Numbered from the stretch's first letter, positions 1 through 14,011 are shown. The stretch: 14,016 bases of DNA from Armatimonadetes bacterium CG06_land_8_20_14_3_00_66_21 (GCA_002779825.1 PEVN01000166.1:1-14016); one strand, 5' to 3'. Numbers and translations are program-made. Notes: a model not told the origin generated them from the sequence alone.

Positions 1-214
1 GCACGTGGTCGGTCCCCACCGCGAGATGGGCGAGTCACACGTGTTCGAGGACATCATGCAGCTTGTCGACTGGGCGCGCGAAGGGAAGCCCAGCCTCGCC
101 ACAGCCGAGCACGCCCGCCACGTCATTGAGATCTTCGAGGCCGGCTACCGCGCGGCGGAGACCGGCGAGACCCAAACGCTCACGACAACATTCGCGCCGC
201 CCGAGGGCGCCTGA
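1..214 (+). CDS. Gfo/Idh/MocA-family oxidoreductase, C-terminal fragment (5' end lies outside the window; reading frame runs from position 2, stop TGA 212-214)
   Basis: Translation ...HVFEDIMQLVDWAREGKPSLATAEHARHVIEIFEAGYRAAETGETQTL matches the C-terminal alpha/beta domain pattern of Gfo/Idh/MocA oxidoreductases (h-v-ie-i-eA-y-Sa-tG-kt-v-L). The frame is open back to position 2, so the real start is upstream of the window. Confidence 0.55.
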   Translation, partial: HVVGPHREMGESHVFEDIMQLVDWAREGKPSLATAEHARHVIEIFEAGYRAAETGETQTLTTTFAPPEGA

Positions 215-300
215 GGACCCGCGCCCTTACACGACCCGCTACCGGCAGACCAAGTGCGCGGGCGGCAGGAGAGCTGGGCCCGCTGCGGAGGGGCGGCCGG

Positions 301-1155
301 TCACCCCTTCATCCCCGTAACGGCAATCCCCTGGATGAACGTCCGTTGGGTGAAGAAGAACAGGATGATCACCGGGAGCACGATGATGGTGCAGGCGGCC
401 ATGAGCATGTTCCACTCGGTGCCGCCGTGCTGGCTCTGGTAGAACTGGAGACCGAGGGCGAGGGTGAAGTGCTTCTGGTCGGTCAGGTAGATGAGCGGCC
501 CCAGGAAGTCGTTCCAGGCGTAGAGGAAGTGGAACAGGGCGACGACGGCCAGGGCGGGCTTGGCCAACGGCAGGATAATCCGCCAGAAGATACCGAACTC
601 GGAGCAACCGTCGACTCGGGCGGCGTCGGATAGCTCTTCGGGAATGGTGCGGAAAAACTGCCGGAGCAGGAAGATGTTGAAGGCGCTGCCGAAGAACGCG
701 GGCACCCACAGCGGCTTGAACGAGCCGATCCAGCCGAGGTGCTTGAACAGCGCGAATACGGCGACCATGGTCACTGGGAACGGCACCATCATCGTCGCCA
801 GCGTGACTGCGAACAGCAGGTCGCGGCCCTTCCACTTCAAGCGGGCGAAGCCGTACGCGACGAGTGCGTTGGACAGCACCGTGCCCGCCACGCCGAGTAC
901 TGCCAGGTACAGCGTGTTCAGCGTGTACCGCAGGAAGGGAATGTAGCCGACCTGATCGCTCTGGTAGGTGATGGCCTTCCAGTAGTTGCTCAACTGAAAG
1001 GTGGACGGGATCCACTGCGGCGGGACCTTCATCGTCTCCTCGATGGGCTTCAGCGAAGTGGAGACCATCCAGAACAGCGGGAACAGGAACACGATCGACA
1101 AGCCGATCAGGATCGCGTGGATGAGGAACTTGGCCTGGGGGGATTTGGCTTCCAT
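301..1155 (-). CDS. carbohydrate ABC transporter permease, MalG/UgpE-like (CUT1 family)
   Basis: 284-aa polytopic membrane protein with an EAA loop motif (EELSDAARVDGCSEFGIFWRIILPLAKPAL). It is the last gene of the SBP-permease-permease operon. ATG start at 1153-1155. Confidence 0.9.
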   Translation of the reverse strand: MEAKSPQAKFLIHAILIGLSIVFLFPLFWMVSTSLKPIEETMKVPPQWIPSTFQLSNYWKAITYQSDQVGYIPFLRYTLNTLYLAVLGVAGTVLSNALVAYGFARLKWKGRDLLFAVTLATMMVPFPVTMVAVFALFKHLGWIGSFKPLWVPAFFGSAFNIFLLRQFFRTIPEELSDAARVDGCSEFGIFWRIILPLAKPALAVVALFHFLYAWNDFLGPLIYLTDQKHFTLALGLQFYQSQHGGTEWNMLMAACTIIVLPVIILFFFTQRTFIQGIAVTGMKG

Positions 1156-1215
1156 GGGGGCAGGGCAATAGGTCGTATGAGTCCTATGGGTCCTTATGAA
1201 GGGCGCGGTGCCCGC

Positions 1216-2100
1216 TCACCCTCCTTCGTAGTACACCAACCGCTCCGAAAACTTCAGCGCCAGCAGCGTCAGCACCAGGATGATCAGGAACATGATCCAC
1301 GCCATGGCGCTGGCGTAGCCCATGCGCAGGTACGAGAACGCGTTGTCGTACAGGTACATGGCGAAGAAGTAGGTCGAGCGCGCCGGCTGGCCGCGCGGCG
1401 ACATGACATAGGGCACGGCGAAGAACTGAAACACGCCGATCAACCCCATGATGGTGTTGAACAGAATCACCGGCGAGACCATGGGGAGGGTAACGTGACG
1501 AACCTTCTGCCCCCAGTTGGCACCATCCAACTCGGCGGCTTCGTAGAGCTGCTGCGGGGCGCTTTGCAGACCGGCAAGGTAGATGACCACGGCGTGACCG
1601 ACGCCCCAGAGCGTGAGGAGAACCAGCGCCGGCTTCGCCCAGAACGGATCGCTCAGCCAGCCAGGTCCCTTGATCCCGATCAGGCCGAGAACGTGGTTGA
1701 GCACTCCGTGCTCGCCGTTGAAGATCCACAACCACAGGATCGCCAACGCCACCATCGGCACCAGCGAGGGGACGAAGAAGATGGTCCGGTAGACGGTCAT
1801 CCCGCGCACGCCCGTATTGAGCAAGATCGCCAATCCGAGCGACACCACCACGCCCAACGGGAGAGCAAACGCGGCGTAGCCGAGCGTGTTCCCAAGCGCC
1901 TTCCAGAACACTTCATCAGTGAACAGGTCGGCGTAGTTGCCCAGCCCGATGAACTGCGGCTTCATCAGGACCGAATACTCGCACAGGCTGAAGTAGAACG
2001 AGGCGATGATGGGGTAGAGCAGGAACACGCTCAGCCCGACGAACCAGGGGGAGACGAAGCCGAGACCGTTGCGGAGGGTGCGTTTCTCTTGCCTAGTCAT
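1216..2100 (-). CDS. carbohydrate ABC transporter permease, MalF/UgpA-like (CUT1 family)
   Basis: 294-aa membrane protein with an EAA motif (QLYEAAELDGANWGQKVRHVTLPMVSPVI). Its ATG at 2098-2100 lies 3 nt from the SBP stop codon (2104-2106), so the two are tightly coupled. Confidence 0.9.
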   Translation of the reverse strand: MTRQEKRTLRNGLGFVSPWFVGLSVFLLYPIIASFYFSLCEYSVLMKPQFIGLGNYADLFTDEVFWKALGNTLGYAAFALPLGVVVSLGLAILLNTGVRGMTVYRTIFFVPSLVPMVALAILWLWIFNGEHGVLNHVLGLIGIKGPGWLSDPFWAKPALVLLTLWGVGHAVVIYLAGLQSAPQQLYEAAELDGANWGQKVRHVTLPMVSPVILFNTIMGLIGVFQFFAVPYVMSPRGQPARSTYFFAMYLYDNAFSYLRMGYASAMAWIMFLIILVLTLLALKFSERLVYYEGG

Positions 2101-2103
2101 GGC

Positions 2104-3435
2104 TCAGTGCTCCAGCCGCGCTTCGCGGCGGAGACCGCGGTCGAGCTTCTTCTGCATCCGCTGTTGGACGATGTCCAGGGCTTCCTTGGGCGCCCTCTTC
2201 TGCAGCCAGAGGTGATCGAACGCGTTGTTCATCTCGTCGGCGTATTCGTTCCACATGCCGAGCTTGGGGGTGCTGAAGGCGTTCTTGCTCTTCGCCAGGT
2301 CGATGAAGACCTCGATGTATGGGTTTGGGTGCTTTCTCAGAAACTCCGCGCTTACCTTCCGGAGCGGCGTGAACTTGCGCTGCCCCATGTTGAGCAGCTC
2401 GCTCCCGCCCTGGGAGTTCACAAACCGAATGAACTCGAACGCTTCGTCGGGATGCTTGGCACCCGTCGGGATGACCAGCACATCGGCTTCGGCGTCGGTC
2501 ACGTTGGCCAGGTCGGGCCGACCGGCTGGGTGCGGGAAGGGCGCGGCGCCCCACTCGAGCTTAGGCGCGTACTTGCTGATGAAGTTGTGCATCCAGACGC
2601 CCTGAATCTCCATCGCGACTGTTTCGGACAGGAACGCGTTCTGCGGCGAGGAGAAGTTGCCGAAGCCGCTCTGGAATGTCTGCAGCGCCGTGGCTCCGTA
2701 CTTCTTGGAGTAGGACTGCACCCACTCGAATGCCCGGATATTCTCCGGGGAGTTGGCTGTGATCTTCGACTTGCCGTCCCACATACGGCCGCCAAAGAAG
2801 TACCCCCACGCCCAGTTCCACCAGCCAGGCTCGGAGGGCATGAAGCCCATCCGGACGATTTTGCCGTCCTTGTCCCGCGTGGTCAGCTTCTCGGCGAAGG
2901 CATCCAGTTCCTCGATGGTCCGGGGCGGGCGGTTTGGGTCCAGACCGGCTTCGCGGAACAGGCGCTTGTTCCAGTGCAGGGCGATGGTCGCCGGAGTCGT
3001 GAGCAGTGCCCACGTTTTCCCGCGGTGCCTGCACAGATCCCAGAACACCGGTAGGAAGTCCTGCTCACCGATTCCTTCTCGCTTCAGGTAGGGGTCGAGG
3101 CAGAGCACTGCGTTCTTGTCCGCGTAGACGTTGACGTTGGAGGACCACAGCCCTGCCACGTCGGGCGGGATCCCACCCGCGGTCGCCATCAGCATCTTCC
3201 GGTCGACCTGGCTAACAGTGAGCAGGTTTACGTGAATGCGGCTCTGCGACTCGTTGAAGGCATTCACAGTCGCCCGCATCGCGTCGCCCTCGAAGCCGGT
3301 CCACTTCTCCCAGTAGTCGATGGTAATCGGGCCGCCGGAGCGGCCGTCGTGGCGGCAGCCGGTAGTGGTGGCGACTACAAGGATTGCAGCGATCATCAAC
3401 GACGGGAGTGCAGTTGCGCGAGAGGGCTTCAGCAT
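2104..3435 (-). CDS. ABC transporter substrate-binding lipoprotein (extracellular solute-binding protein family 1, sugar/oligosaccharide type)
   Basis: 443 aa. N-terminal signal peptide followed by a Cys (…AILVVATTTGCRHDG), consistent with a lipobox. Size and Trp/Tyr/Asn-rich composition are typical of CUT1 solute-binding proteins. It sits directly upstream of the two permeases. Confidence 0.88.
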   Translation of the reverse strand: MLKPSRATALPSLMIAAILVVATTTGCRHDGRSGGPITIDYWEKWTGFEGDAMRATVNAFNESQSRIHVNLLTVSQVDRKMLMATAGGIPPDVAGLWSSNVNVYADKNAVLCLDPYLKREGIGEQDFLPVFWDLCRHRGKTWALLTTPATIALHWNKRLFREAGLDPNRPPRTIEELDAFAEKLTTRDKDGKIVRMGFMPSEPGWWNWAWGYFFGGRMWDGKSKITANSPENIRAFEWVQSYSKKYGATALQTFQSGFGNFSSPQNAFLSETVAMEIQGVWMHNFISKYAPKLEWGAAPFPHPAGRPDLANVTDAEADVLVIPTGAKHPDEAFEFIRFVNSQGGSELLNMGQRKFTPLRKVSAEFLRKHPNPYIEVFIDLAKSKNAFSTPKLGMWNEYADEMNNAFDHLWLQKRAPKEALDIVQQRMQKKLDRGLRREARLEH

Positions 3436-3476
3436 GGTGGAGCAGCAATGGAGGAGTTGCCGGAGGAGTACGCGGT

Positions 3477-4937
3477 TCAGGGGCTGCCATCCTTCTGTGG
3501 GTCTGAATCAGCCGTGTTCGGCCCTCTACTCGCGTCGAGCGCTTCGACCAACCCACGCGCTTTGTCCAGCGTCTCCTGGTACTCCGCTTCAGGGACTGAG
3601 TCGGCCACGATGCCTCCCCCGGCGTGGAAGTAGGCAACGCCGTCCTTCACAACCATGGTCCGGATGACGATGTTCAGGTCCAGGCTGCCGTCGAAGCCCA
3701 GGTAGCCGAGGGCGCCGGTGTAGACACCGCGTTTCGTCGGCTCCAGTTCGTCGATGATCTCCATCGCGCGGATCTTGGGCGCGCCGGTGATGGAGCCACC
3801 GGGAAATGTAGCCCGGAGCAGATCGACCTGGTCGCAGTCTTCGCGAAGCGTTGCCTCGATGGTGGACGTTAGATGATGCACGGTGGGGAATGTCTCCAGG
3901 GCCGCGTGCTCCGTGACGGCTACAGAGCCGGTCTCGGCCACGCGCCCCAAGTCGTTGCGCTCCAAGTCCACGATCATGAGGTGCTCGGCATGGTCCTTCT
4001 CACTGGCGAGGAGTTCCTGAGCGTTCCGCCTGTCTGAGTCGGCGTCGGCGCCCCGCGGGCGAGTACCCTTGATGGGGCGCGTGTGCATTCGGCGGGAGTT
4101 CGGGTCGAGCCACAGGAAGCGTTCCGGCGAGGCGCTGAGGAGCTGGAACGGTCCGTAGTCGAGGTAGGCAGCGAACGGGGCCGGGTTGCCGGATCGCAGT
4201 CGTCGGTACAGGTCCCACGAAGGCACCGGCATCGCCGCGGCAAACCGCTGCGACAGGTTCACCTGGTAGATATCCCCGGCGAGGATGTAGTCCTGTGCGC
4301 GCCGGACGGCGTCGACATACGCCTGGTGGGTGAAGTTGCTGGTGAGGGGAGGAGCGTGGTGGGCGTCGCGCGAGGCGAGGGGCGGGACGGGGGGCAGCGG
4401 GCTGGGGGGGGGGTCGGTCAAGAGGCGCGTGGCGAGTTCCTCCGCGAGGCGGGCTTCGACTCCCTGGCCGGTGTCCGTCCAACCGACCCAACTCCGGCCC
4501 GACTCGTGGTCGAACGTCACGACCACCGGGCAGAAGTGGACGAACATGTCGGGTAGCCCCAGGTCGTCCACAACCGTCCGGGGCAGCTCCTCGACGAAGT
4601 GGCAGAGATCGTACCCGAGATAACCGACGGCGGCCCCGCACAGCGGCGCACCAGGGCCCGGCGCCGGCGTGCTGAACTCACCCAGCAAGTCTCGCAGAAC
4701 CGAGAAGGGGTCACCGACGAACTGCTGCCGCAGGCCGCCGCGTGAGACGGTCACTTGCCGGCCGTGGCACCGGACCGAGGTGCCCGAAGAGAAGAGCAGG
4801 AGGGAGCGCTCTGCGTGCCGGCCCAACCGCATGCCGCTGTCGAGAAAGGCGTCTCCCGGTCCTCGCCTGAGAAGGTCAAAGGCCGCATGCGCAGCAATCG
4901 GGGTGGAAAGTTCGGTGAGCTGGGTGGACCAAGCTGC
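3477..4937 (-). CDS. pabB: aminodeoxychorismate synthase component I (PabB-type chorismate-binding enzyme). The 5' boundary is uncertain: probably the TTG at 4935-4937 or the ATG ~105 nt further in. The tracked ORF reaching 5351 is over-extended.
   Basis: The C-terminal 300 aa align closely with E. coli PabB as I remember it: SPERF, TRPIKGTRPRG, DRRNAQELLASEKDHAEHLMIVDLERNDLGRV, FPGGSITGAPKIRAMEIIDELEP, GGGIVADSVPEAEYQET. The Lys in PIKGT is typical of ADC synthase, where TrpE has PIAGT. The first ~138 codons of the tracked ORF are R/P/S-rich, overlap the upstream gene by 350 nt in another frame, and have no homology. The homologous N-terminus begins near …LAAWSTQLTELSTPIAAHAAFDLLRRGPGDAFLDSG, which parallels E. 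coli MKTLSPAV…AMLLHSG. Confidence 0.75.
   Translation of the reverse strand, partial: AAWSTQLTELSTPIAAHAAFDLLRRGPGDAFLDSGMRLGRHAERSLLLFSSGTSVRCHGRQVTVSRGGLRQQFVGDPFSVLRDLLGEFSTPAPGPGAPLCGAAVGYLGYDLCHFVEELPRTVVDDLGLPDMFVHFCPVVVTFDHESGRSWVGWTDTGQGVEARLAEELATRLLTDPPPSPLPPVPPLASRDAHHAPPLTSNFTHQAYVDAVRRAQDYILAGDIYQVNLSQRFAAAMPVPSWDLYRRLRSGNPAPFAAYLDYGPFQLLSASPERFLWLDPNSRRMHTRPIKGTRPRGADADSDRRNAQELLASEKDHAEHLMIVDLERNDLGRVAETGSVAVTEHAALETFPTVHHLTSTIEATLREDCDQVDLLRATFPGGSITGAPKIRAMEIIDELEPTKRGVYTGALGYLGFDGSLDLNIVIRTMVVKDGVAYFHAGGGIVADSVPEAEYQETLDKARGLVEALDASRGPNTADSDPQKDGSP
4404..4413. repeat. G10 homopolymer run inside the pabB coding sequence (C10 on the coding strand, encoding DPPPS)
   Basis: Read directly from the sequence: gctgggggggggg tcgg. 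It lies within a Pro-rich linker insertion (TDPPPSPLPPVPPLASRD). Confidence 0.9.
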
Positions 4938-5001
4938 CAAGGTGTTCGCCGTTGACCAATCGCTGCCGGGCGACGACTGTCGTCCCCGCGCCCGTTGCGG
5001 G

Positions 5002-6813
5002 CTACTTGCAGATTCGCTCCATCTCTCGGTAGGCGCCTCGCTCTGCGCGGACGACCTCCTCCAGGGCGCTTGCGGAGGCGTCGCACTCCTGCTTGAATGC
5101 CTCGCCCGAGGAACTCTCCGCGCGGGCCGAGACCGACGTGGCTCGAGGCGCGCCGAGGGACACCAAGCGAAGCTTCTCGACGGCTTGGTCGAAGTTGGCG
5201 GCTGCCGCCAACGCTGGACCGCGCTCCTGATTGGGGAGTTCGCTGCCCGCGGTGCGCAGGAACGCGGCGGCCGCCTTTCGAGCCGCAATGAGGCGAGGCA
5301 GGGCGGAAACGGCCCAGCGGACCAATTGGTCGCGGTCGCCCTTGTCGACACCCGAGTAGTCCCGCGGTGTGCGGAGATCGTCCGTCAACTCTCCGTAGGC
5401 GCGGAACCCGGCCGCAAAGGAACCGGACCGCGTGTCTTGCATGATCCGCGTGCCGGCGAGGATCGCGCGTTCGGCCGTCTGCGCCGGACTCTGAGGGGTG
5501 CCGCTCTTTCGGAACGCGTACCAGGAGTAGCGAGCGCCACGACCGCTCATGGGGTCAAGGGAAGGGCAGGACGCGGTCGACCAGCTCTTCGCGAGTTGCT
5601 CCCAGGAGATGGAGCGGGTGACGCCTTGGGCGTCAACCAGAGCCACCGTCTTCGCCGCCTCGTCGTAGCCGGCAACTGTAACCCAACTGGGTGGCGGGAG
5701 CACCAGTGGCACAAAGGTGGGTTGCTTCTCCTCCAGGGCTTTGCGCAGAGACTCGAAACCCTCCTGGAAGTTCGTGGCTTGCTGCTGCGTAGCCTTGAGT
5801 CCAAGCGCGCGGCAGATGGCCTCGAGGGGGTTCTGCGGCAGATAGTCGGCGCCGCCCAGGCGGTCATTCCTGTCGTAGTAGAACTGAAAGGCCAGCCCGG
5901 AGATGCCCATCAGATGGCTGGCCGAAGCCTGCACACCAAGCGACCGGAGGCAGTCTTCGACGCTCCGAACGAACGGAGGAGGCGTGAAGTGCTCCCGGGC
6001 TCCTCCCGGCGCGCGCCGGATGTCGACGAGAACCTGGCGGGGTTCGGCCTTCTCCTCAGCCGCCTTCGTTCGGTCAGTGTAGTAGTAGATCCACCCGACG
6101 GCCTTCTTCGCTTCCTCAGCCCATTTGGTGTTGGGGTACTTGTCGATGACCTTCTGGTATTCCTCGATTGCCCGGGAGGCGTCGCGCCGAACATTCTCCT
6201 GAGCCCGAGCGAGGTAGAACTGAGCTTCGGCACAGTGCGGCAGGTCCGCAGCGTAGTCCCGAAGGACCGCGGTGAAATGCTCGGCACCCTCCCACTTGCC
6301 CTCCTCGTAGTCGATCTTCCCCAGTGCCAGCCGCACTTCGGCCGATAGTGCCGGATCTCCGCCGTAGTCCGCCAGGGCCCGGTTGTACGCGGCCACTGCT
6401 TCCTCGTAGCGGTGCAGTTTCCGGTAGGACAGCTCGCCGATGCGCAACTGCGCCGCCGGGGCGAGTTTGCTGTTGGGGAACTGGGAGACGAGGCGCTGGT
6501 AGGCGCGCACTCCCTCGGCGGGTTTGTCGAGGTGATTGGCGAGGACCTCCGCCTGTCGCTCGAGGGCGCGGTCTGCCCATTCACTGTCGGGATGGTCGTC
6601 ACTCAGCAGCCGGTAATAGCGGAGCGCCTCCTGGTATTGCTTGCGGGCGTAGTGCTGTTCCGCCTTCTCAAAGATGTCCTTGTCCGACGCGCCGCAGCCG
6701 ACCAGTGCCACCACTGCCAGGAGCGCAAGGGCAGTACGCGCGGCTCGAGGAAAGGGACGCCTCCAGCGGGATGCCGTCGATGAGTTGGGTGGGTGGCTTG
6801 ACATCTGAAACAC
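5002..6813 (-). CDS. outer-membrane-type lipoprotein: N-terminal TPR repeats (BamD/YbgF-like) fused to a C-terminal ~330-aa domain resembling BtrH_N/DUF4872 (papain-like fold). The tracked start is GTG at 6811-6813; an in-frame ATG lies at 6802-6804.
   Basis: Signal peptide with lipobox (…ALLAVVALVGCGASDKD). After it come several TPR-like helices (YARKQYQEALRYYRLL…, YRKLHRYEEAVAAYNRAL…, AEAQFYLARAQ…, EEYQKVIDKYPNTKWAEEAK). The C-terminal half carries DCLRSLGVQASASHLMGISGLAFQFYYD and later SWVTVAGYDEAAKTVALVDAQG. These resemble the BtrH_N consensus (C..aL…G…sE…GLgsGLgFfY … HavvvvGYDe) as recalled from memory. Confidence 0.7.
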   Translation of the reverse strand: MFQMSSHPPNSSTASRWRRPFPRAARTALALLAVVALVGCGASDKDIFEKAEQHYARKQYQEALRYYRLLSDDHPDSEWADRALERQAEVLANHLDKPAEGVRAYQRLVSQFPNSKLAPAAQLRIGELSYRKLHRYEEAVAAYNRALADYGGDPALSAEVRLALGKIDYEEGKWEGAEHFTAVLRDYAADLPHCAEAQFYLARAQENVRRDASRAIEEYQKVIDKYPNTKWAEEAKKAVGWIYYYTDRTKAAEEKAEPRQVLVDIRRAPGGAREHFTPPPFVRSVEDCLRSLGVQASASHLMGISGLAFQFYYDRNDRLGGADYLPQNPLEAICRALGLKATQQQATNFQEGFESLRKALEEKQPTFVPLVLPPPSWVTVAGYDEAAKTVALVDAQGVTRSISWEQLAKSWSTASCPSLDPMSGRGARYSWYAFRKSGTPQSPAQTAERAILAGTRIMQDTRSGSFAAGFRAYGELTDDLRTPRDYSGVDKGDRDQLVRWAVSALPRLIAARKAAAAFLRTAGSELPNQERGPALAAAANFDQAVEKLRLVSLGAPRATSVSARAESSSGEAFKQECDASASALEEVVRAERGAYREMERICK

Positions 6814-6884
6814 ACCAGCTTGCCCGGCCAGTCGCGATAGCCGACGAACAGCTCTCGCCGGACCCTCGCACGCCGTAACCTCCG

Positions 6885-6914
6885 AGTATAGCGCTCCCCT
6901 TCACAGGCTGTCAA
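6885..6914 (-). promoter_or_regulatory. sigma70-type promoter on the minus strand: TTGACA-N18-TATACT, driving the TPR-lipoprotein/pabB/ABC cluster
   Basis: The minus strand reads cgttcgTTGACAgcctgtgaaggggagcgcTATACTcgg. TTGACA is the reverse complement of 6909-6914 and TATACT of 6885-6890. The pair lies 65-75 nt upstream of the start at 6804/6813. Confidence 0.45.
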
Positions 6915-6968: not shown

Positions 6969-6997
6969 TTGACACCGAAACCTCTCGGCGTTAGAAT
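6969..6997 (+). promoter_or_regulatory. sigma70-type promoter on the plus strand: TTGACA-N17-TAGAAT, driving the NfeD-like/flotillin operon
   Basis: The plus strand reads gccgaTTGACAccgaaacctctcggcgtTAGAATcgttcc. TTGACA is at 6969-6974 and TAGAAT at 6992-6997, with the optimal 17-nt spacer. The predicted transcription start is near 7004, 48 nt upstream of the first candidate start codon at 7052. Confidence 0.5.
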
Positions 6998-7051
6998 CGT
7001 TCCTCACGTAGCTCGACGGCAAGAGGCAGTGCGCTTCGCAAGCTCCATCGG

Positions 7052-8134
7052 TTGACTCCGCAGCCGCGAGACCTTCCGAAACTCACAGCAGCAGGGCGCG
7101 ACGGCCTTCCCGGCCTCTTCGGTGCACAACAGGTGGTGTTCTCCGTGCAGGGACTCAAGACGCTGTTCGAGTGGTACAACCTGATCTACACGCTCCCGTT
7201 TGGGCTTTCGGTCCTCCTCATGATCGTCTCCGCCATGGGGCTGGGAGGGCACGACCACGACGTTTCCCCCGACGGCGGCCACGACCTCGACGCCGACCAC
7301 GATGTGGACGTAGATCATGACGTCGACGTAGATCACGACGTGGCCCTCGACCATGACCTCGACGTCGACCACGACCTGGCCGTGGACCACGACGTAGACG
7401 TGAACCACGACGTGGACATGGACCACGAAGTGGATCTGGACCATGACGCCGATCTGGACCACGACCTGGATCATGAGGTCGACTACGACTTGGCCGCCGA
7501 CCACGACGCTGACGCGGACGCGGACCACGGCGCAGACCACGAGGTCCATGCCTCCTCGAATGGAACGCACCACGGCGCGGATCATGGGGAAGGCATCTTC
7601 AAGGCACTCCTTTCACTGCTGGGTGTCGGCAAGGTACCGATCACCGTGCTTGTTCAGTCCTTCATGATCGCGTGGGCGATCATCGGGTGGAATGCGAACA
7701 TCTGGCTCGCCAAGGCCATGCGCGTGCCGGAGGTGTACATCCTCCCCTCCATGGCGGTCTCGTTCTTCGGCGCGCTCGCGGTGACGCGGCTCATGGCGAC
7801 GTGTCTGCACAAGCTCATGCCCAGTTCCGAGACCTACGCAAGGAGCCCGCTGGAGCTGCTCAGTGCTTCGGGCACCGCCCTCTTCAGGATTGACGGAAGC
7901 GGGGGGTACGCCGATGTCTACGATGAACAAGGAACGCTCCACCGGGTCCGCTGCCGTAGCCGTTACGGCGAGGTGCCGAAGGGCGCCAAGGTGACGCTGG
8001 TGGACTACCATGGCGACGGCCTCTACGAAGTAGCCGCCCCTACCCACAACGGTAGTAACGGCAACGGAGAAGCCAAAACGGGACCCGAGCCGCGGACGCG
8101 CTCCGTGGAAGTGCAAGCCGAGACGAGAAACTGA
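7052..8134 (+). CDS. NfeD-like (YuaF-type) membrane protein carrying an inserted His/Asp-rich hexapeptide repeat module. TTG start at 7052; GTG 7133/7136 is an alternative.
   Basis: Topology: TM1 (LIYTLPFGLSVLLMIVSAMGLGG), then a ~112-aa H/D-rich low-complexity region, then TM2/TM3 (VPITVLVQSFMIAWAIIGW…, VYILPSMAVSFFGALAVTRLMATCL). The C-terminus (GTALFRIDGSGGYADVYDEQGTLHRVRCRSRYGEVPKGAKVTLVDYHGDGLYEVAAP) has the pattern of the NfeD OB-fold beta-barrel. It sits immediately upstream of a flotillin gene, the canonical NfeD-SPFH pairing seen in B. subtilis yuaF-floT. Confidence 0.7.
   Translation: MTPQPRDLPKLTAAGRDGLPGLFGAQQVVFSVQGLKTLFEWYNLIYTLPFGLSVLLMIVSAMGLGGHDHDVSPDGGHDLDADHDVDVDHDVDVDHDVALDHDLDVDHDLAVDHDVDVNHDVDMDHEVDLDHDADLDHDLDHEVDYDLAADHDADADADHGADHEVHASSNGTHHGADHGEGIFKALLSLLGVGKVPITVLVQSFMIAWAIIGWNANIWLAKAMRVPEVYILPSMAVSFFGALAVTRLMATCLHKLMPSSETYARSPLELLSASGTALFRIDGSGGYADVYDEQGTLHRVRCRSRYGEVPKGAKVTLVDYHGDGLYEVAAPTHNGSNGNGEAKTGPEPRTRSVEVQAETRN
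7280..7525 (+). repeat. In-frame degenerate 18-nt tandem repeat, about 10 full units plus 3 partial, encoding (H-D-x-D-x-D)n. The whole H/D-rich region spans 7250-7585.
   Basis: Units read from the sequence: cacgacctcgacgccgac / cacgatgtggacgtagat / catgacgtcgacgtagat / cacgacgtggccctcgac / catgacctcgacgtcgac / cacgacctggccgtggac / cacgacgtagacgtgaac / cacgacgtggacatggac / cacgaagtggatctggac / catgacgccgatctggac, and so on. Units differ mainly at synonymous third positions (cac/cat, gac/gat, gtg/gta/gtc). Confidence 0.9.
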
Positions 8135-8172
8135 CCGCAACGAGATCGGCGCGGCACACCCGCGCACAACAA

Positions 8173-8179
8173 AAGGAGG
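8173..8179 (+). promoter_or_regulatory. Shine-Dalgarno site AAGGAGG, 8 nt upstream of the flotillin ATG
   Basis: The sequence is aaAAGGAGGagtcgcagATG. This is the canonical core with ideal spacing. Confidence 0.8.
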
Positions 8180-8187
8180 AGTCGCAG

Positions 8188-10098
8188 ATGAGTTGGGGGA
8201 TTCTGTTAGGCATGTTGGGCGTGGCGCTGATGATCACGCCATTCGTGAAGGGGAGCGTCGGCTCGCTGGGAGGCCTTATCCTCATGGGGTTCGGCGGGCT
8301 GCTCTTCGTGATCGACGTGCTGGTAATGGTCATCACGAAGCTGTATGTCAAGACCAGCGCCAATCAGGCATTCGTGCGCACGGGCAGCGGCGGGTCCAAG
8401 GTCGTGCTGGACGGCGGGTGCTTGGTCGTGCCCATCATCCACCGGGTGGTCCCGGTCTCGCTGGAAACCATGAAGCTCGATGTCGACCGGCGTGACCAGG
8501 AAGCGTTGATCACCAAGGACAACCTGCGCGTCGACGTGACCGGAGAGTTCTACATCAAGGTGGAGCCTGCCCGAGACGACATTCTCGCCGCCGCCCGCTC
8601 GTTGGGTGAGAAGTCGATCAACCCGGCGAATGTCTCGCAACTGGTCTTTGAGAAGCTGGTATCCGCGATTCGAAGCGTGGCTGCCACCATGGACTTGGTC
8701 GACCTGCACATGCGCCGAGACGACTTCGCGACCGCTGTCTTCGACAGCGTCCAGAACGAGCTGAAACCCAATGGTCTCACGCTGGAGACGGTCACCATCT
8801 CCCAGTTGGACCAGACCGACCCCAGCATGCTGAGCGATGAGAACATCTTCGATGCGCAAGGCAAGAAGAAGATCACCGAGATCACGGCTGCGGCCAAAGT
8901 CGAGCGGAACCGTTTGGAGCGCATGGCGGAGCAGGAGACAACGAAGCAGGACGTCGAGACGCGACAGCGCGTGCTGGACCTGGAGAAGGCCCAGAAGGAG
9001 GCCGAAGCGACCCAAGCCGCCGAGGTTGCCAACATCCAGGCTGGCAAGCAGCGCGAGAAGCAGGCGTACCAGATCGAGCAGGACCGGGCCGTGCTGGAAG
9101 CGGAGATCGCCAAGGACCAGCAAGTGAAGGAGCGGCAGATCGCCCAGGAGCAGTCGGTGGAGGTCGCTTCCATCCAGCGCGACAAGGCGTTGATCCTGCA
9201 ACGCCAGGAAAAGGAACAGACCGACATTGCTCGCGAGCAGGCGGTCCAGTCGTCGGAGATCGCCAAGGCGCAGGCCGTCGAGGTCGCCGAGCGGCAGAAG
9301 CAGATCGCCGTTGCCGAGCGGGATGCAGAACGCGCTCGCGCCGAGGAAGAAGCCCTGAAAGCTCAGGCTGCTCGGGAGTCCGCCAACCAGCAGGTCATCA
9401 CTGTTACCGCCGTCGCCGAAGCCGACCGCCATGCTCAGACCAAGCTGATCGAAGCCAAACAGGTGATCGAGCAGCAGAAGATCAAGGACCAGACGGAAGC
9501 CGACGTGCTGGCCTACACCGCCGTCAAAGAAGCTGAAGGCGACCAGGAAGCCGCCCAGCGAAAGGCAGACGCCCAACTCACCCTCGCCCAAGCCGCCGCC
9601 GAATCGAAGAAGCGCGAATCCGAAGGCGACAAGGCCATCAAGATGGTGGACGTCGAAGTCGAGCGCGAGCGGGTCAACGTCGAGCAGGCTCGGGTTGAGG
9701 TCGAGCGGCAGTCGCTGGAGAACACGCAGACCTTCGATAGGGCGGGCATTGAGCTGCAGAAGATCAAGCTCACCATCGAGGCCCAAAAGGAAGTGCAGAT
9801 CGCGCTGGCCAACAACATTGGTCAGTTCATGAGCCGCGGGCAATACACCGTGTACGGCGACCCCGACACGATGGCCAGCATGATGGAGCGGTTCATGAAA
9901 GGGCTGTCAATCGGGACGTTCGCCGACGGTCTGATAGCGGGCGCCTCGGAGGACGCCAAAGACGCCGTCCGCGGCCTCGCGCAGACCCTTGGCGGCCCAG
10001 TGGGCGCAGCCGTGGAGAAGCTCGTTGGCTCGGACACACCCGACGAGCCGGCACCCTCCGCGCCGGCCGATGCCGAGCCCGCCACCGCGGAGGCATAG
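8188..10098 (+). CDS. floT: flotillin-like protein, FloT/YuaG family: N-terminal membrane hairpin, SPFH/band-7 domain, long coiled coil
   Basis: 636 aa. Hydrophobic N-terminus. The SPFH region (FVRTGSGGSKVVLDGGCLVVPIIHRVVPVSLETMKLDV…ALITKDNLRVDVTGEFYIKV) aligns with B. subtilis FloT (VRGGGTFVLPVFQQAEPLSLLSSKLDV…) as recalled. After it comes ~350 aa of E/A/Q/K-rich heptad-like sequence (EAEATQAAEVANIQAG…ERQKQIAVAERDAERARAEEEALKAQAA…) and an acidic Pro/Ala tail. A strong RBS precedes it and the NfeD-like gene sits just upstream. Confidence 0.88.
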   Translation: MSWGILLGMLGVALMITPFVKGSVGSLGGLILMGFGGLLFVIDVLVMVITKLYVKTSANQAFVRTGSGGSKVVLDGGCLVVPIIHRVVPVSLETMKLDVDRRDQEALITKDNLRVDVTGEFYIKVEPARDDILAAARSLGEKSINPANVSQLVFEKLVSAIRSVAATMDLVDLHMRRDDFATAVFDSVQNELKPNGLTLETVTISQLDQTDPSMLSDENIFDAQGKKKITEITAAAKVERNRLERMAEQETTKQDVETRQRVLDLEKAQKEAEATQAAEVANIQAGKQREKQAYQIEQDRAVLEAEIAKDQQVKERQIAQEQSVEVASIQRDKALILQRQEKEQTDIAREQAVQSSEIAKAQAVEVAERQKQIAVAERDAERARAEEEALKAQAARESANQQVITVTAVAEADRHAQTKLIEAKQVIEQQKIKDQTEADVLAYTAVKEAEGDQEAAQRKADAQLTLAQAAAESKKRESEGDKAIKMVDVEVERERVNVEQARVEVERQSLENTQTFDRAGIELQKIKLTIEAQKEVQIALANNIGQFMSRGQYTVYGDPDTMASMMERFMKGLSIGTFADGLIAGASEDAKDAVRGLAQTLGGPVGAAVEKLVGSDTPDEPAPSAPADAEPATAEA

Positions 10099-10182
10099 CG
10101 CAAGCCGCAACAGACTCGACCAGGGAGCCGGCAGAGGGCTGGCTGGCTGCGCGCTTCGCGACTCCGGCCAGTCCCGCACCCC

Positions 10183-10189
10183 AAGGAGG
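10183..10189 (+). promoter_or_regulatory. Shine-Dalgarno site AAGGAGG, 8 nt upstream of the GTG start at 10198
   Basis: The sequence is ccAAGGAGGgacccgtcGTG. The core and spacing are identical to the flotillin RBS. Confidence 0.7.
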
Positions 10190-10197
10190 GACCCGTC

Positions 10198-10683
10198 GTG
10201 TCAACCGGACCACACGCCGTGCCAAGCCAGGAAGCCCTCACCGATCCGGTGGCCCAGTGGACGGGCCCGGCCGTGGACACCTTGGCCGTCTTCTGCAGCG
10301 ATGGGCGCTTCAAGCAGATGGTCGACCAGTTCCTCCGCGACGGGCTGAAGATTCCCAACTGCGATGTCTTCGCCGTGCCGGGCGGAGCAGGCTGGCTTAC
10401 CGTCGGGATGTTCAATCACAAGGAATGCGATGTCGCCAACCGCTGGCTCGACGCGCTGATCCAGAAACACAACCTGAAACGGGCCGTGCTGCTCGCCCAC
10501 GAAGATTGCGCCTTCTACAAGGAGAAATGCAAGGGTTCCAGCCCCCTGGAGATCCAGAAGCAGCAACTCACCGAGCTGCACGAGGCGGGCGACCGTCTGC
10601 AACGCATGGCCGGCAGTGTTCAGGTGGAGCTGTACTATGCGGACATCGTTGACGATCACGTGACGTTCAAACGGGTGAAGTAG
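10198..10683 (+). CDS. small (161 aa) protein with beta-carbonic-anhydrase-like zinc-ligand motifs (CxDxR … HxxC); a divergent or truncated beta-CA-fold protein
   Basis: FCSDGRF (C33, D35, R37), then CDVFAVPGGAG, then AVLLAHEDCAFY (H101, C104). Order and spacing mirror the beta-CA signatures C[SA]DSR … VxRNAGN … hhhhGHxxCG (compare E. coli CynT ISCSDSRL…VIRNAGN…IVICGHSNCGA, recalled). Third codon positions are GC-rich on the + frame, and an RBS precedes the GTG. The length-matched antisense ORF 10201-10686 is rejected. Confidence 0.45.
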   Translation: MSTGPHAVPSQEALTDPVAQWTGPAVDTLAVFCSDGRFKQMVDQFLRDGLKIPNCDVFAVPGGAGWLTVGMFNHKECDVANRWLDALIQKHNLKRAVLLAHEDCAFYKEKCKGSSPLEIQKQQLTELHEAGDRLQRMAGSVQVELYYADIVDDHVTFKRVK

Positions 10684-10727
10684 CACGGGACCGCCTCAAC
10701 CGTCCTCAACTGCCGCGGCGCGACCTC

Positions 10728-11699
10728 GTGTGGTTTGGGCTGTTTGCATTTGTCTACGTCCCTTTGTGCGTGACCCTCGAGGCCTCGGTGCCCTGCCGAG
10801 GCGGCCCCGACGAAGGGGACCACTACCTCTACATCCGCGCCCTGGGCGACACCTGCCGCCTCCCTATCCGGGCTCCGGTGTATGCGGGCCGCCTGGGAGG
10901 CGGTGACCGCGTCAGTCGCCAGATTCAGCATCCGCCCCTCTACTACCTGGTCGGAGCGGTGGTCTATCGGCTGGCAAAGCCTTGGGGACCGGCCGCGACA
11001 TGGAAGGCAGTGCGCGGCCTGAACATTGCTCTGGGTGTCGCAGCGCTGTACTTGTTGCTTCTCACCGCGCGCTTGGTCCTTTCCCGTCGTCGCGACCTCT
11101 CCTTCGCCCCGGTTGTGCTGTGTGCCTTGGTGCCCGCCTCCGCCTACTTGTCGTGTGTGGTCACCAATGAGACGGGGGCTGCGCCGTGCACCAGCGCAGT
11201 TCAGTATGCTTTGGCGCGCGTGATCTGGCTGGGACCGTCTCGACGCCGACTCGCGGCCTTGGCGCTGCTCCTCGGCTTGGGGGGGCTGACCAAGTACACG
11301 GTGCTGGTGTGGCTCCCTGCCTGCTTGTGCGTGGTGCCAGTGGTCGTGTGGCGTGCCCGGCGCAGTTGGCGCTTGGTGGCGGAGGGCGTAACGACCATCC
11401 TCACCGTCCCCTTGGCTGTGTGTGGGGGATGGTTCGTCCGGAACTACCTTCTCTACGGAGTCCCGGTGTTTCGCAACGTGATCAGCCCGCCCCTGTTCCC
11501 CGGCGGCTTGCCGCAGATCGCGGCTCTCCCTGACGAGCTGCTCCTGTCCTGCTGCCACTTGATCTACCGCTCGATCCCGATGGCGTGGACCCCCTATTGG
11601 CTGATCGCGCAAACCCCGGGCTGGACACGACTGCTCTGCAGAGGATCGTTCGTGATCACCGCGCCTATTGCGCTCGGCGCGGTTTTCAGGGCGGTTTAG
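10728..11699 (+). CDS. GT-C-fold glycosyltransferase, ArnT/PMT-like (GT83/GT39 type). This is the N-terminal 323 codons and it ends at an in-frame TAG (11697-11699).
   Basis: The first-loop motif PDEGDHYLYIRALGDT…KPWGP parallels E. coli ArnT [20 protein letters not shown]…KPIAGYW (recalled). A LLLGLGGLTKYTVLVWLPA segment parallels the ArnT GMGVMTKGFLALAVP motif. About 9-10 TM helices. GTG start. Confidence 0.7.
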   Translation: MWFGLFAFVYVPLCVTLEASVPCRGGPDEGDHYLYIRALGDTCRLPIRAPVYAGRLGGGDRVSRQIQHPPLYYLVGAVVYRLAKPWGPAATWKAVRGLNIALGVAALYLLLLTARLVLSRRRDLSFAPVVLCALVPASAYLSCVVTNETGAAPCTSAVQYALARVIWLGPSRRRLAALALLLGLGGLTKYTVLVWLPACLCVVPVVVWRARRSWRLVAEGVTTILTVPLAVCGGWFVRNYLLYGVPVFRNVISPPLFPGGLPQIAALPDELLLSCCHLIYRSIPMAWTPYWLIAQTPGWTRLLCRGSFVITAPIALGAVFRAV

Positions 11700-11717: not shown

Positions 11718-12041
11718 GTGCGCCGGCTCCGCCGCCGTGAGCTGTTCTTCCTGACCTCCACGCTGGCACTCCTCCTGCTCATTCTGGGGGGCTTCCGAGA
11801 GGCGTGTCTCGTGGATATGGGGGTGATGGTCTTCGTGGGACGCTACTACGTCGCCCTCTTCCCTGCCACGGCCCTATTGGCGGTGTGGTGGCTTCTCTCG
11901 CTGGGTAGGGCTTGGCGTCGTGCACCGCGGGCCGCCGCGTGTCTCGGCGTCTGCCTCCTTCTGGCCGTCTGGGCGGCCGCTTACCTGGGGGTCTCTCGGT
12001 TCTACAACCTCTACGGAGTCGGGGCGCCGCCGGAGTTGTAG
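11718..12041 (+). CDS. C-terminal three-TM segment, most likely the continuation of the GT-C glycosyltransferase. It is in the same frame as 10728-11699, separated only by the TAG and six sense codons.
   Basis: 11718 and 10728 are both multiples of 3. Reading through TAG gives …FRAV*VRRRWAVRRLRRRELFFLTSTLALLLLILGG… with 3 further TM helices. The combined length of ~438 codons and ~12-13 TM helices matches full-length GT-C enzymes. Confidence 0.5.
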   Translation: MRRLRRRELFFLTSTLALLLLILGGFREACLVDMGVMVFVGRYYVALFPATALLAVWWLLSLGRAWRRAPRAAACLGVCLLLAVWAAAYLGVSRFYNLYGVGAPPEL

Positions 12042-12085: not shown

Positions 12086-14011
12086 TCAGAACGAGAAGAT
12101 CTCGTGCCCCCGCACACCGACTGCGAAGTCGATGAGCACCCACAGCCCAGCGCTGACGAACTCCCCGAGGATCAGTCCGAAGGCGCCGGGCAGCACTTGG
12201 CGGTAGACGGCGCTCCCGCCGTACTTCATTACAGCGCTCTTCGCAGTCCACCCCAGCAGGATGGCGAACCAGAAGTTGACCATCGGCCACGTGGCGCCCA
12301 TGAGGTAGCCGATGGGATGGAACGGCCACCACAAGAACGTCCGGTGCAGGACCTGGATGAAGACCATGCTGCCCGCACCCGCCAGCATCGTCCAGACCGA
12401 CGGGAGCGACCGCGGCTCGCCGTTGACCAGCAGGTTCGCCGTCCACGAGCAGTACAGGTTCTTCGTGTAGTAGGTGGTGAACCACGTGTTGAGAGTCAAC
12501 CCGCCGTTGGCGTACACGAGGCGCATGTACGACCAGTACGACACCGCCGCCGCCACCACCACGCTCGCCGCCATCGCGCCGAGCAGCCTGCGTCGCTGGA
12601 TGCCGGCCATGTCGCCGATCTTCAGCCCCTGCACCAGGCAGGGCATGAGCGGGCTGCGGTTGTCCAGCATGAGCAGGTGGTCGAAGAACACCAGCATGGT
12701 CACGCGGGCCGGCCCGAACGCTTTGCTGCCGACGGCCGCGAAGAGCATGTTGATCGGCCGGAACGGGTGCTGTACATACAGCATCCCGCCTTCGCACACC
12801 AGCCGAACCGCGACCGTATGCACCAGGAAGAACAGCACGAACAACACGGTCGTGCTCCCCGCGCCCGCGCCGGCTGCGCCACCCCAGGCGATGATCGTCG
12901 CCATTCCCGCAACCAGGCAGAGCAGCGTGCCGCGCGCTGAGAGCGCTTCCTTCGCGGTGTAGTCGCGCTGCCGCCCCAGCACGCACTCCCACCACTGGCG
13001 CAGGTGCGGCCGCATCCCCCAGAACCCATACAGCCCGGCGACGACGATGCCGCCGATCATCTGGTGGGCGACGAACGCCTTCACCGGAAAGGCCTGCACG
13101 TTGGGCATCGGGAACCCCGCCATTGCCCCGAGGAGCTGCTGCACCAGGAAGAAGAAGTAGAAGAACCACAAGCTGAACGACAGGTTCGTCGGCAGCAGGA
13201 ACGTCAGCCCGATGATGCTGAACAGCACGCGGAGGCGCAGCAGTTGAAGGGTGTCCCACGGCTTCCCCGTGAAGTACTGGCCCAGCGGGATGAGGTGCAC
13301 GTTGATCGCCGGCACAAAGGGGAAATGGAAGTGCAGCCCGTTGAGGGTGTGGAGGCAGAACGGCAACAGGAAGCACCACCACATGAGCTTGTTGCGCACC
13401 AGCGTTGGCAGCGCCCACCGGTGCCCCGCCTCGACCTCCGCAAACTGAACGGGCAACTGCACCAGCGGGAACACCAGCTTCTCGTTCTCCACCCACTGCC
13501 GCCGCAGCAACGCCGACAGCCCGAAGAGCACCAAGTACACACCCGCAATCAGGATGCCCCACCCCAACACCGGACTCCACCAGGCACTCCACGGAATCGG
13601 CGACGAGGGCGCCCCTTCGTACAGCCCGATCACCGCCTGTTCGGAGCCGGGATGTAGCCACTTCGGGAGGTTGGGGAGGATCAGCTCATCCCACCGGTTC
13701 TCCGGTCCGGCGAAGTAGAAGGGCCCGGCGATGTACGGGATCAGCAGCCCGACCAGCCCGAACGACGGGATCCCCGCCGCGACCAGCAGCATCACGAACA
13801 CAGTCAGCAACTCAGCCCGCGTCAACTGCTTGCCGAGGCGCGCCAGCAGCGGGTTGACGCCGACGGACAGCACGAGAAACAGGAAGAAGCTGGCAACGGG
13901 GAACGCCGTCAGACCCACCCATGTGCCCTTCATCACCAGGTCGCTGTAGGGGATGGCGAGGGCGAGGGCGGCTGAGAGGAGGAGACCGAGGAGGAAGGAG
14001 CGGAGGGTCAT
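12086..14011 (-). CDS. large polytopic integral membrane protein of unknown function (641 aa, at least 14 predicted TM helices, Trp/Phe-rich)
   Basis: ATG at 14009-14011. Strongly hydrophobic segments run along the whole length (LLGLLLSAALALAI, LTAFPVASFFLFLVLSV, LLTVFVMLLVAAGIPSFGLVGLLIPYIAG, WGILIAGVYLVLFGL, and others). The overlapping same-strand ORF 11874-13661 is R/G/A-rich junk. I recognise no family confidently. Confidence 0.75.
   Translation of the reverse strand: MTLRSFLLGLLLSAALALAIPYSDLVMKGTWVGLTAFPVASFFLFLVLSVGVNPLLARLGKQLTRAELLTVFVMLLVAAGIPSFGLVGLLIPYIAGPFYFAGPENRWDELILPNLPKWLHPGSEQAVIGLYEGAPSSPIPWSAWWSPVLGWGILIAGVYLVLFGLSALLRRQWVENEKLVFPLVQLPVQFAEVEAGHRWALPTLVRNKLMWWCFLLPFCLHTLNGLHFHFPFVPAINVHLIPLGQYFTGKPWDTLQLLRLRVLFSIIGLTFLLPTNLSFSLWFFYFFFLVQQLLGAMAGFPMPNVQAFPVKAFVAHQMIGGIVVAGLYGFWGMRPHLRQWWECVLGRQRDYTAKEALSARGTLLCLVAGMATIIAWGGAAGAGAGSTTVLFVLFFLVHTVAVRLVCEGGMLYVQHPFRPINMLFAAVGSKAFGPARVTMLVFFDHLLMLDNRSPLMPCLVQGLKIGDMAGIQRRRLLGAMAASVVVAAAVSYWSYMRLVYANGGLTLNTWFTTYYTKNLYCSWTANLLVNGEPRSLPSVWTMLAGAGSMVFIQVLHRTFLWWPFHPIGYLMGATWPMVNFWFAILLGWTAKSAVMKYGGSAVYRQVLPGAFGLILGEFVSAGLWVLIDFAVGVRGHEIFSF

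Follow-up and report, generated by a model that had tools for sequence, protein, structure and literature searches.

We analyzed a 14,016-nt stretch of DNA (the window) from Armatimonadetes bacterium CG06_land_8_20_14_3_00_66_21 (GCA_002779825.1 PEVN01000166.1:1-14016). Three genes on its plus strand encode, in this order, a YqiJ-like membrane protein with a long loop rich in His and Asp, a flotillin, and a small protein resembling beta-carbonic anhydrases (beta-CAs). Their open reading frames (ORFs) occupy positions 7052/7145-8134, 8188-10098 and 10198-10683, with intergenic gaps of 53 and 99 nt, and a search of the plus strand between positions 6500 and 11200 found no terminator-like site. 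This layout had been described in an earlier note on the same DNA and was borne out in every respect. The source is a metagenome-assembled genome (MAG) of the Armatimonadota and not of the Planctomycetota, the comparison group proposed there. Below, P1, P2 and P3 denote the products of the three genes, and features lie on the plus strand unless otherwise stated. The locus is an ordinary member of the known yqiJK/nfeD2-floT class of operons that carries a lineage-specific passenger gene.

Gene 1 (7145-8134; 329 residues) was identified through its homologues as a member of the YqiJ/DUF1449 family, an NfeD-class flotillin partner. The search returned 378 homologues at E <= 1e-3 (best E, 1e-157), named YqiJ or DUF1449 family, and most database homologues carry the precomputed family PF21001 (YqiJ_N). 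The same family was matched by 11 of 12 P1 relatives (best E, 1.4e-08), with four of the 12 matching PF07290 (YqiJ_OB) and one PF01957. The NfeD-like partner of the earlier note is indeed of the NfeD class, but P1 comes closest to YqiJ_N, slightly below its cut-off, and not to NfeD (PF01957). Translation most likely starts at GTG 7145, in agreement with the MQG(L/I)..LFEWYNL N termini of the nearest homologues. The alternative start TTG 7052 was rejected because gene callers on eight independent assemblies choose GTG 7145.

The hydropathy scan placed the first transmembrane segment (TM1) at residues 11-35 (YNLIYTLPFGLSVLLMIVSAMGLGG; 7175-7249), where the sequence LFEWYNLI is kept in homologues. 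A second landmark, G-V-G-K-V-P (7622-7639), lies immediately ahead of TM2; it occurs as GxG[KR][VI]P in nearly all homologues and as IGRLP in Escherichia coli YqiJ. The C-terminal soluble domain (MPSSETYA...LYEVAAP; 7814-8041) was assigned by profile match to the NfeD/YuaF-type OB fold: a profile of the C-terminal part of the family matches the soluble domain of Bacillus subtilis YuaF, 2K14, over 64 residues with an E value of 0.0072.

Gene 2 (8188-10098; 636 residues) encodes a flotillin of the YqiK/FloT type. Its product shows a hydrophobic N terminus, an SPFH domain at residues 55-244 (8350-8919) that matches Band_7 (PF01145) with an E value of 7.9e-22, and then a long Glu/Ala-rich helical region. 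Over 459 residues, P2 shares 32% identity with E. coli YqiK (E, 1e-66), and its score against the NCBIfam FloT equivalog NF058507 was 62.2 bits, for a cut-off of 700. By these similarities P2 classifies as a flotillin-like protein of the YqiK type and not as a FloT orthologue. In the population sample L004, 24 substitutions are packed into 120 nt of the region coding for the flotillin coiled coil (window positions 8896-9015) and the remainder is nearly identical, a pattern suggestive of a patch of recombination or of a collapsed repeat.

The association of the first two genes is conserved. Each of the seven other lineages sampled (L009, L010, L011, L112, L114, L116 and L118) has a yqiJ gene as the immediate upstream neighbor of a Band_7 gene, both on one strand, and E. 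coli and a Bosea plasmid carry yqiJ and the flotillin gene in this order too. Pairing of NfeD and flotillin genes was described by Hinderhofer 2009 (PMC2636767). At other Armatimonadota loci, yqiJ is immediately preceded, on its own strand, by a gene for a protein of about 193 to 224 residues without a Pfam family (L010, 5346-5939; L011, 5359-5952; L112, 4299-4880; L116, 4330-5004, the last overlapping the yqiJ start). This gene, which does not occur in the window, may be a further conserved member of the operon.

The loop of P1 separates TM1 from TM2. It spans residues 36-150 (115 residues; 7250-7594) and contains 21 His and 44 Asp plus Glu residues and no Lys or Arg. The earlier hand count of roughly 20 His and 40 Asp residues arranged in HDxDxD hexapeptides proved accurate, as a stretch of 118 residues holds 21 His, 40 Asp, 7 exact HDxDxD units and 16 H[DE] pairs. 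The core of 80 residues is a strict (Asp-X)n alternation: 36 of its 40 odd positions are acidic, as against 0 of the 40 even ones, and X is mostly His (13), Val (12), Leu (8) or Ala (5). Such an alternation looks amphipathic, as in an extended or beta-type strand, one face of which would be made up entirely of carboxylates. At the DNA level, the hexapeptides are encoded by a diverged tandem repeat of 18 nt (also 36 nt) at 7271-7470, with 11.1 copies, 75% matches and no indels. Among eight same-species assemblies, P1 shows no indels, and every amino acid difference falls inside the loop.

The earlier note had singled out this insertion as unusual. However, the same trait recurs in the YqiJ/DUF1449 family across many phyla. 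In a sample of homologues gathered by shared 5-residue words, a stretch rich in His, Asp and Glu is present in all of the 120 best (median, 63 residues), and it reaches at least 100 residues in 11 of them. The loop could be delimited in 82 homologues, where it measures 33 to 146 residues (median, 74) and is composed of 14% His, 30% Asp and 0.3% Lys plus Arg. The register is kept in these 82 loops as well, with a probability of an acidic residue of 0.77 at position +2 relative to 0.004 at +1 and 0.02 at +3, and the commonest X in D-X-D is His (506 of about 1,718). Loop-bearing homologues come from at least six phyla, with representatives in Armatimonadota, Abditibacteriales, Phycisphaerae/Humisphaera, Patescibacteria, Chloroflexota and Myxococcota. 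In E. coli YqiJ the loop is a miniature of 29 residues, 5 His and 3 Asp among them, and that of the Bosea plasmid homologue is a short DxDxD stretch devoid of His. Loop length drifts fast between relatives: the loop of the window has 115 residues and that of L009, with an 81% identical flotillin, about 45. We thus regard the loop of P1, from these comparisons, as an expanded form of a YqiJ-family trait and not as a peculiarity of gene 1. Since phyla differ in their repeat units, and the units here are only 75% identical in DNA, the register looks selected rather than the product of plain recent slippage.

The topology of P1 was predicted by a crude hydropathy scan combined with the positive-inside rule. 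In 92 homologues with three predicted TMs, the mean number of Lys plus Arg residues is 0.14 in the N-terminal tail, 0.73 in the loop between TM2 and TM3, and 2.88 in the 20 residues that follow TM3. The positive-inside rule thus puts the OB domain in the cytoplasm and, with three TMs, the His/Asp loop is probably cytoplasmic too. A cytoplasmic OB domain agrees with the prediction that E. coli YqiK faces the cytoplasm (PMC10434171).

Gene 3 (10198-10683; 161 residues) encodes a Pro_CA_2 protein with a beta-CA fold, as judged from family and fold matches. P3 carries CSDGR...HEDC, scores 40.8 bits against Pfam Pro_CA_2 (PF20393; cut-off, 30) and is identical to GW911_18510 of the Armatimonadetes MAG GCA_009994565.1. 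P3 gave no match to PF00484, PF20393 being alone at E <= 1, and no solved structure was matched by sequence. An exhaustive homologue search yielded 537 clusters at 50% identity. In 150 cluster representatives, residues C33, S34, D35, R37, D56, P61-G62-G63, H91, H101, C104, Y107 and Q123 are at least 91% conserved. Those of the zinc site reach at least 93%, with H101 at 99% and C104 at 100%; their codons are at 10294-10296 (C33), 10300-10302 (D35), 10306-10308 (R37), 10498-10500 (H101) and 10507-10509 (C104). An AlphaFold model built from an 81-sequence alignment had a mean confidence score (pLDDT) of 93.6 (an earlier AF2 model from 6 sequences, with a pLDDT of 64, was not used), and its best 50 Foldseek matches listed were all beta-CAs. 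With hhalign, CSDGR aligned on CSDSR and HEDC on HYGC of E. coli Can (probability, 85%; E, 5.9e-06).

Residue conservation, fold matches and the hhalign register with Can together argue that the beta-CA-type zinc ligands recognized in the earlier note are correct. The fold attributed to the third protein was also right, but its family is PF20393 and not PF00484. Given the complete zinc-site signature, and with no signal peptide in P3, the protein is probably a soluble cytoplasmic enzyme of the beta-CA superfamily acting as a hydratase on CO2/HCO3- or of the carbonyl sulfide (COS)/carbon disulfide (CS2) type; COS and CS2 hydrolases have the same fold. Among 80 genome loci, Pro_CA_2 genes have no conserved neighbor. 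In only 5 to 7 of the 80 do they lie downstream of Ni/Co energy-coupling factor transporter genes, whose products are CbiO-like, ending in a His-rich tail, and CbiM-like, beginning with MHIPDG (examples among L014-L093: L052, 3186-3998; L029, 3363-4553).

Neighborhood comparison gave a narrow distribution for the three-gene set. Pro_CA_2 directly follows the flotillin gene in the window, L013 and L096 only, with P3 68 to 71% identical, and in L009 and L012 the order is flotillin, MTTB and CA-like gene. Flotillins are 77 to 81% identical across the CA-bearing relatives. The inserted gene (L009, 8752-10167; L012, 1-1038) is of the MTTB family (trimethylamine methyltransferase-like, non-equivalog), and in that sub-lineage a convergent DegT/DnrJ/EryC1 aminotransferase gene follows the CA-like gene. 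The Pro_CA_2 gene of L009, the closest long contig, is split over two frames (10300-10700), in a 600-nt stretch that the gene caller left unannotated; it is either a pseudogene or the result of an assembly error in the Logan contig.

Beyond these relatives the association was not found. No flotillin or YqiJ was detected by tblastn in the flanks of 95 distant Pro_CA_2 loci (80 genome loci, mostly of Planctomycetota, and 15 metagenome loci), and the same tblastn, as a positive control, detected both proteins in distant Armatimonadota. Conversely, none of the seven other lineages with a His/Asp-rich YqiJ and a flotillin has a Pro_CA_2 gene. There, the flotillin gene is followed by MTTB, by an unrelated 203-residue protein gene, by Ion_trans_2 or by a convergent gene. 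The 203-residue product in L010 and L011 was considered as a divergent CA-like protein and dismissed, as it has no similarity to P3 and no Pfam family. A metagenome scan with P3 alone found nothing, and an alignment-based scan found distant relatives only. The co-conservation suggested for the three genes is therefore confined to a narrow clade, and gene order across these genomes indicates that the CA-like gene is a lineage-specific addition to the operon end rather than part of a conserved module.

The promoter announced in the earlier note is present. TTGACA-N17-TAGAAT (6969-6997) matches the sigma-70-type consensus at 11 of 12 positions; two promoters of that quality occur in 4.7 kb, compared with 0.5 expected from shuffled sequences. 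L009 conserves it as TTGACG-N17-TAGAAT followed by an identical CGTTCC. The leader of about 140 nt (6998-7144) contains a possible Shine-Dalgarno (SD) sequence, AGGTGG (7131-7136), 8 nt before GTG 7145. Genes 2 and 3 are each preceded by the same AAGGAGG, at 8173-8179 and 10183-10189, 8 nt ahead of ATG 8188 and GTG 10198, respectively, as had been pointed out. The SD spacing is therefore identical for all three genes, which are probably cotranscribed here, judging from their arrangement. Between the conserved promoter and the GTG, the leader exceeds that of L009 (5961-6000) by about 100 nt, and this additional stretch has no Rfam match and folds less well than shuffled sequence. The whole leader matched no Rfam family at E <= 1 and folds no better than shuffled sequences (z = +2.1). 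Neither the 140-nt leader nor the 99-nt gap has an Rfam match or remarkable folding, and the idea that either holds a riboswitch or attenuator was discarded.

Two further membrane-protein genes, for 323 and 107 residues (10728-11699 and 11718-12041), follow gene 3 after a gap of 44 nt and are possibly the tail of the same transcript. They have no Pfam, NCBIfam or PADLOC family and were not found in the relatives L009, L012 and L013, being species-specific. A role in anti-phage defense was rejected because none of the five genes has a PADLOC match.

On the opposite strand, a second near-consensus promoter, TTGACA-N18-TATACT (11 of 12; 6885-6914), faces a gene for a TPR/YfiO-like lipoprotein (5002-6517/6813, minus strand). 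The spacer between positions 6814 and 7144 is therefore a divergent promoter region. Positions 1-4832 hold, on the minus strand, a sugar ABC transporter (two BPD_transp_1 permeases and an SBP_bac_1 binding protein) and a gene for aminodeoxychorismate/anthranilate synthase component I, whose mechanical ORF (3477-5351; 624 residues) far exceeds the 451 residues of the gene callers. A convergent gene (12086-14011, minus strand) encodes a DUF6785+DUF6784 membrane protein of 641 residues. The annotated or Pfam-scanned genes of the window include none for metal homeostasis or for calcium or carbonate transport.

We propose that the locus is a flotillin operon of the yqiJ-yqiK type (SPFH2 + NfeD2) in which the loop serves as a cation-binding tether and gene 3 is a lineage-specific add-on, an account that we hold to be moderately probable. 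A conserved sigma-70-type promoter would drive a widespread two-gene membrane-scaffold module. As in the characterized members of the family, the flotillin would anchor itself through an N-terminal hydrophobic hairpin and oligomerize at the membrane's cytoplasmic face. Its YqiJ-like partner would cross the membrane three times in an N-out/C-in orientation, and the C-terminal OB-fold domain of this partner would dock onto the flotillin. Between TM1 and TM2, the loop would form a flexible, polyanionic, His-rich cytoplasmic tether able to bind divalent cations, with transition metals held by His and carboxylates and Mg, Ca or Mn by carboxylates. The flotillin oligomer would gather many copies of the loop at the membrane, and a CA-fold enzyme would be cotranscribed from the operon end as a lineage-specific gene. 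There is a published hint of a link with metals: in Shewanella oneidensis, a knockout of the flotillin gene SO1377 perturbs iron metabolism, and its DUF1449 neighbor was proposed to be a metallochaperone (PMC1468410). The handling of metals within a raft-like domain, which was the second option of the earlier note (Zn, Ni or Fe), may be regarded as plausible.

Several observations weigh against this account. The score of P1 itself against YqiJ_N (PF21001), 21.2 to 21.7 bits, is slightly below the gathering cut-off of 23. A four-helix topology for P1 would place the loop outside the cell. The 5-residue words by which the homologues were gathered are mostly made of His and Asp, which biases the sample to proteins that contain them (a query of the word index with the His/Asp-free C-terminal part of P1 alone returned 3 proteins); we therefore call long loops widespread, and give no fraction for the family as a whole. 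Finally, the CA-like gene stays near the flotillin gene in four or five lineages at 68 to 80% identity, even with MTTB in between. Such proximity in spite of sequence divergence and of the inserted gene leaves room for a real functional link within the clade.

Among the other explanations, the one that survives best, although we consider it unlikely, is that the loop is a disordered polyanion with a physical role, either as an entropic spacer or as a poly-Asp "holdase" for unfolded membrane clients. The FloA-NfeD pair of Staphylococcus aureus stabilizes unfolded proteins without ATP (PMC11222466). The loop has no Lys or Arg and a net charge of about -44, and its free variation in length between relatives is what would be expected if bulk composition outweighed exact sequence. 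However, a polyanion leaves unexplained why His is the commonest X in the D-X-D units of the 82 homologue loops, and the strict two-residue register, unlike a random acidic composition, suggests a fixed conformation, extended or of the beta type, or ligands set in an ordered array.

A bolder form of the tether proposal, which we advance as a tentative and somewhat less probable idea, is that (Asp-X)n/His loops turn flotillin assemblies into membrane platforms for the buffering or delivery of divalent metals, extended in this Armatimonadota clade by a zinc enzyme of the beta-CA fold that the platform would supply or localize. If true, metal buffering or delivery would represent a general, unrecognized function of the flotillin-NfeD2 pair.

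The earlier note had united the partner, the flotillin and the CA-like enzyme in one module for carbonate/Ca2+ or Zn/Ni/Fe chemistry, which we now regard as quite improbable. The common strand and promoter, the equal SD spacing and the lack of a terminator between the genes speak for it, as do the recurrence of flotillin and Pro_CA_2 genes in L013 and L096 (and, with MTTB in between, in L009 and L012), the complete zinc site of P3, and a loop that is a textbook case of the (Asp-X)n pattern of acidic mineral-matrix proteins. Nevertheless, the adjacency is confined to close relatives, the distant Pro_CA_2 loci and the other YqiJ-flotillin lineages do not share it, and the Pro_CA_2 frame is broken in L009. 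The comparison with an extracellular CaCO3 matrix would not fit either if the loop, together with the OB domain, P3 and the flotillin, is on the cytoplasmic side, as charge distribution and the missing signal peptide predict, and extracellular mineralization is accordingly unlikely; nor does the window contain a calcium or carbonate transporter or a metal-homeostasis gene. Comparative genomics thus gives no support to a three-component carbonate or mineral module.

Least probable of all is that the loop is a functionless, neutral low-complexity expansion through slippage of the 18-nt repeat: the tandem repeat with its periods of 18 and 36, the contraction from 115 to about 45 residues in a relative with an 81% identical flotillin and the clustering of P1 differences within the loop in the eight assemblies are in its favor, but the Asp register is unbroken over 80 residues although the DNA units are just 75% identical, at least six phyla share this alternation and composition with repeat units that differ, Asp and His persist even in the short loop of E. 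coli, and the 8 population samples show no length polymorphism.

The cation-binding tether that we favor bears on a debated question, since scaffolding, protease regulation and an unfolded-protein holdase activity have all been put forward as the role of bacterial flotillin-NfeD pairs, and E. coli yqiJK has no clear phenotype. A literature search found no paper that pairs NfeD with "histidine-rich", and DUF1449 was found only in a paper from 2006. The loop seems, as a family-wide feature, not to have been described so far. A strict Asp-X, His-rich loop devoid of Lys and Arg, of the long kind found in hundreds of YqiJ-type partners, therefore offers a concrete, testable handle on flotillin-NfeD function.

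Among known systems, the E. coli yqiJ-yqiK pair shares gene order and strand with this locus as well as a flotillin with the identity given above. The layout of P1 recurs in E. coli YqiJ: TM1, an Asp/His loop and GxG[KR]xP, then another two TMs ahead of a soluble domain at the C terminus. Unlike that of P1, with its 115 residues, 21 His and 40 Asp, its loop has about 29 residues, 5 His and 3 Asp. The E. coli pair also lacks a third gene, as sibD/ibsD come next.

Composition alone links P1 to metal transporters with His/Asp loops such as RcnA, and the Joint Genome Institute labels two YqiJ homologues "RcnA" for their loop. The (Asp-X)n register of the loop corresponds to the pattern classically proposed for acidic mineral-matrix proteins. 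However, P1 has no homology to RcnA or to the matrix proteins beyond the low-complexity stretch; P1 is not a transporter, and the matrix proteins are secreted, whereas its loop is probably cytoplasmic.

The relatives of P3 are beta-CAs (E. coli Can and the "Cab" type of Methanobacterium thermoautotrophicum) and the COS and CS2 hydrolases. C42, D44, R46, H98 and C101 of Can are in register with the Cys-His-Cys ligands and the Asp-Arg dyad of P3. P3 differs from beta-CAs in belonging to a separate family, PF20393, with a length of 161 residues and invariants of its own, namely, D56, PGG at 61 to 63, H91, Y107 and Q123.

The yuaF(nfeD2)-floT(yuaG)-yuaI operon of B. subtilis has the same general plan, an NfeD-class partner, a flotillin and then a gene for a small unrelated enzyme, and the soluble domain of YuaF (2K14) aligns with the C-terminal domain of the P1 family. 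To our knowledge, YuaF is short, and no His/Asp loop has been reported in it. Its third gene encodes a GNAT acetyltransferase and not a protein of the beta-CA fold. The yuaI gene is present only in B. subtilis (PMC2636767), so that the third gene is lineage-specific there as well.

Finally, SO1376 (DUF1449) and SO1377 (flotillin) of S. oneidensis represent the same two-gene module and are its only members with a published metal-related phenotype. Unlike P1, SO1376 has 212 residues and no long His/Asp repeat, and the metallochaperone proposal rested on a few Cys and His residues (PMC1468410). The loop described here fits this iron-related phenotype, the sole one published for a YqiJ-flotillin module.

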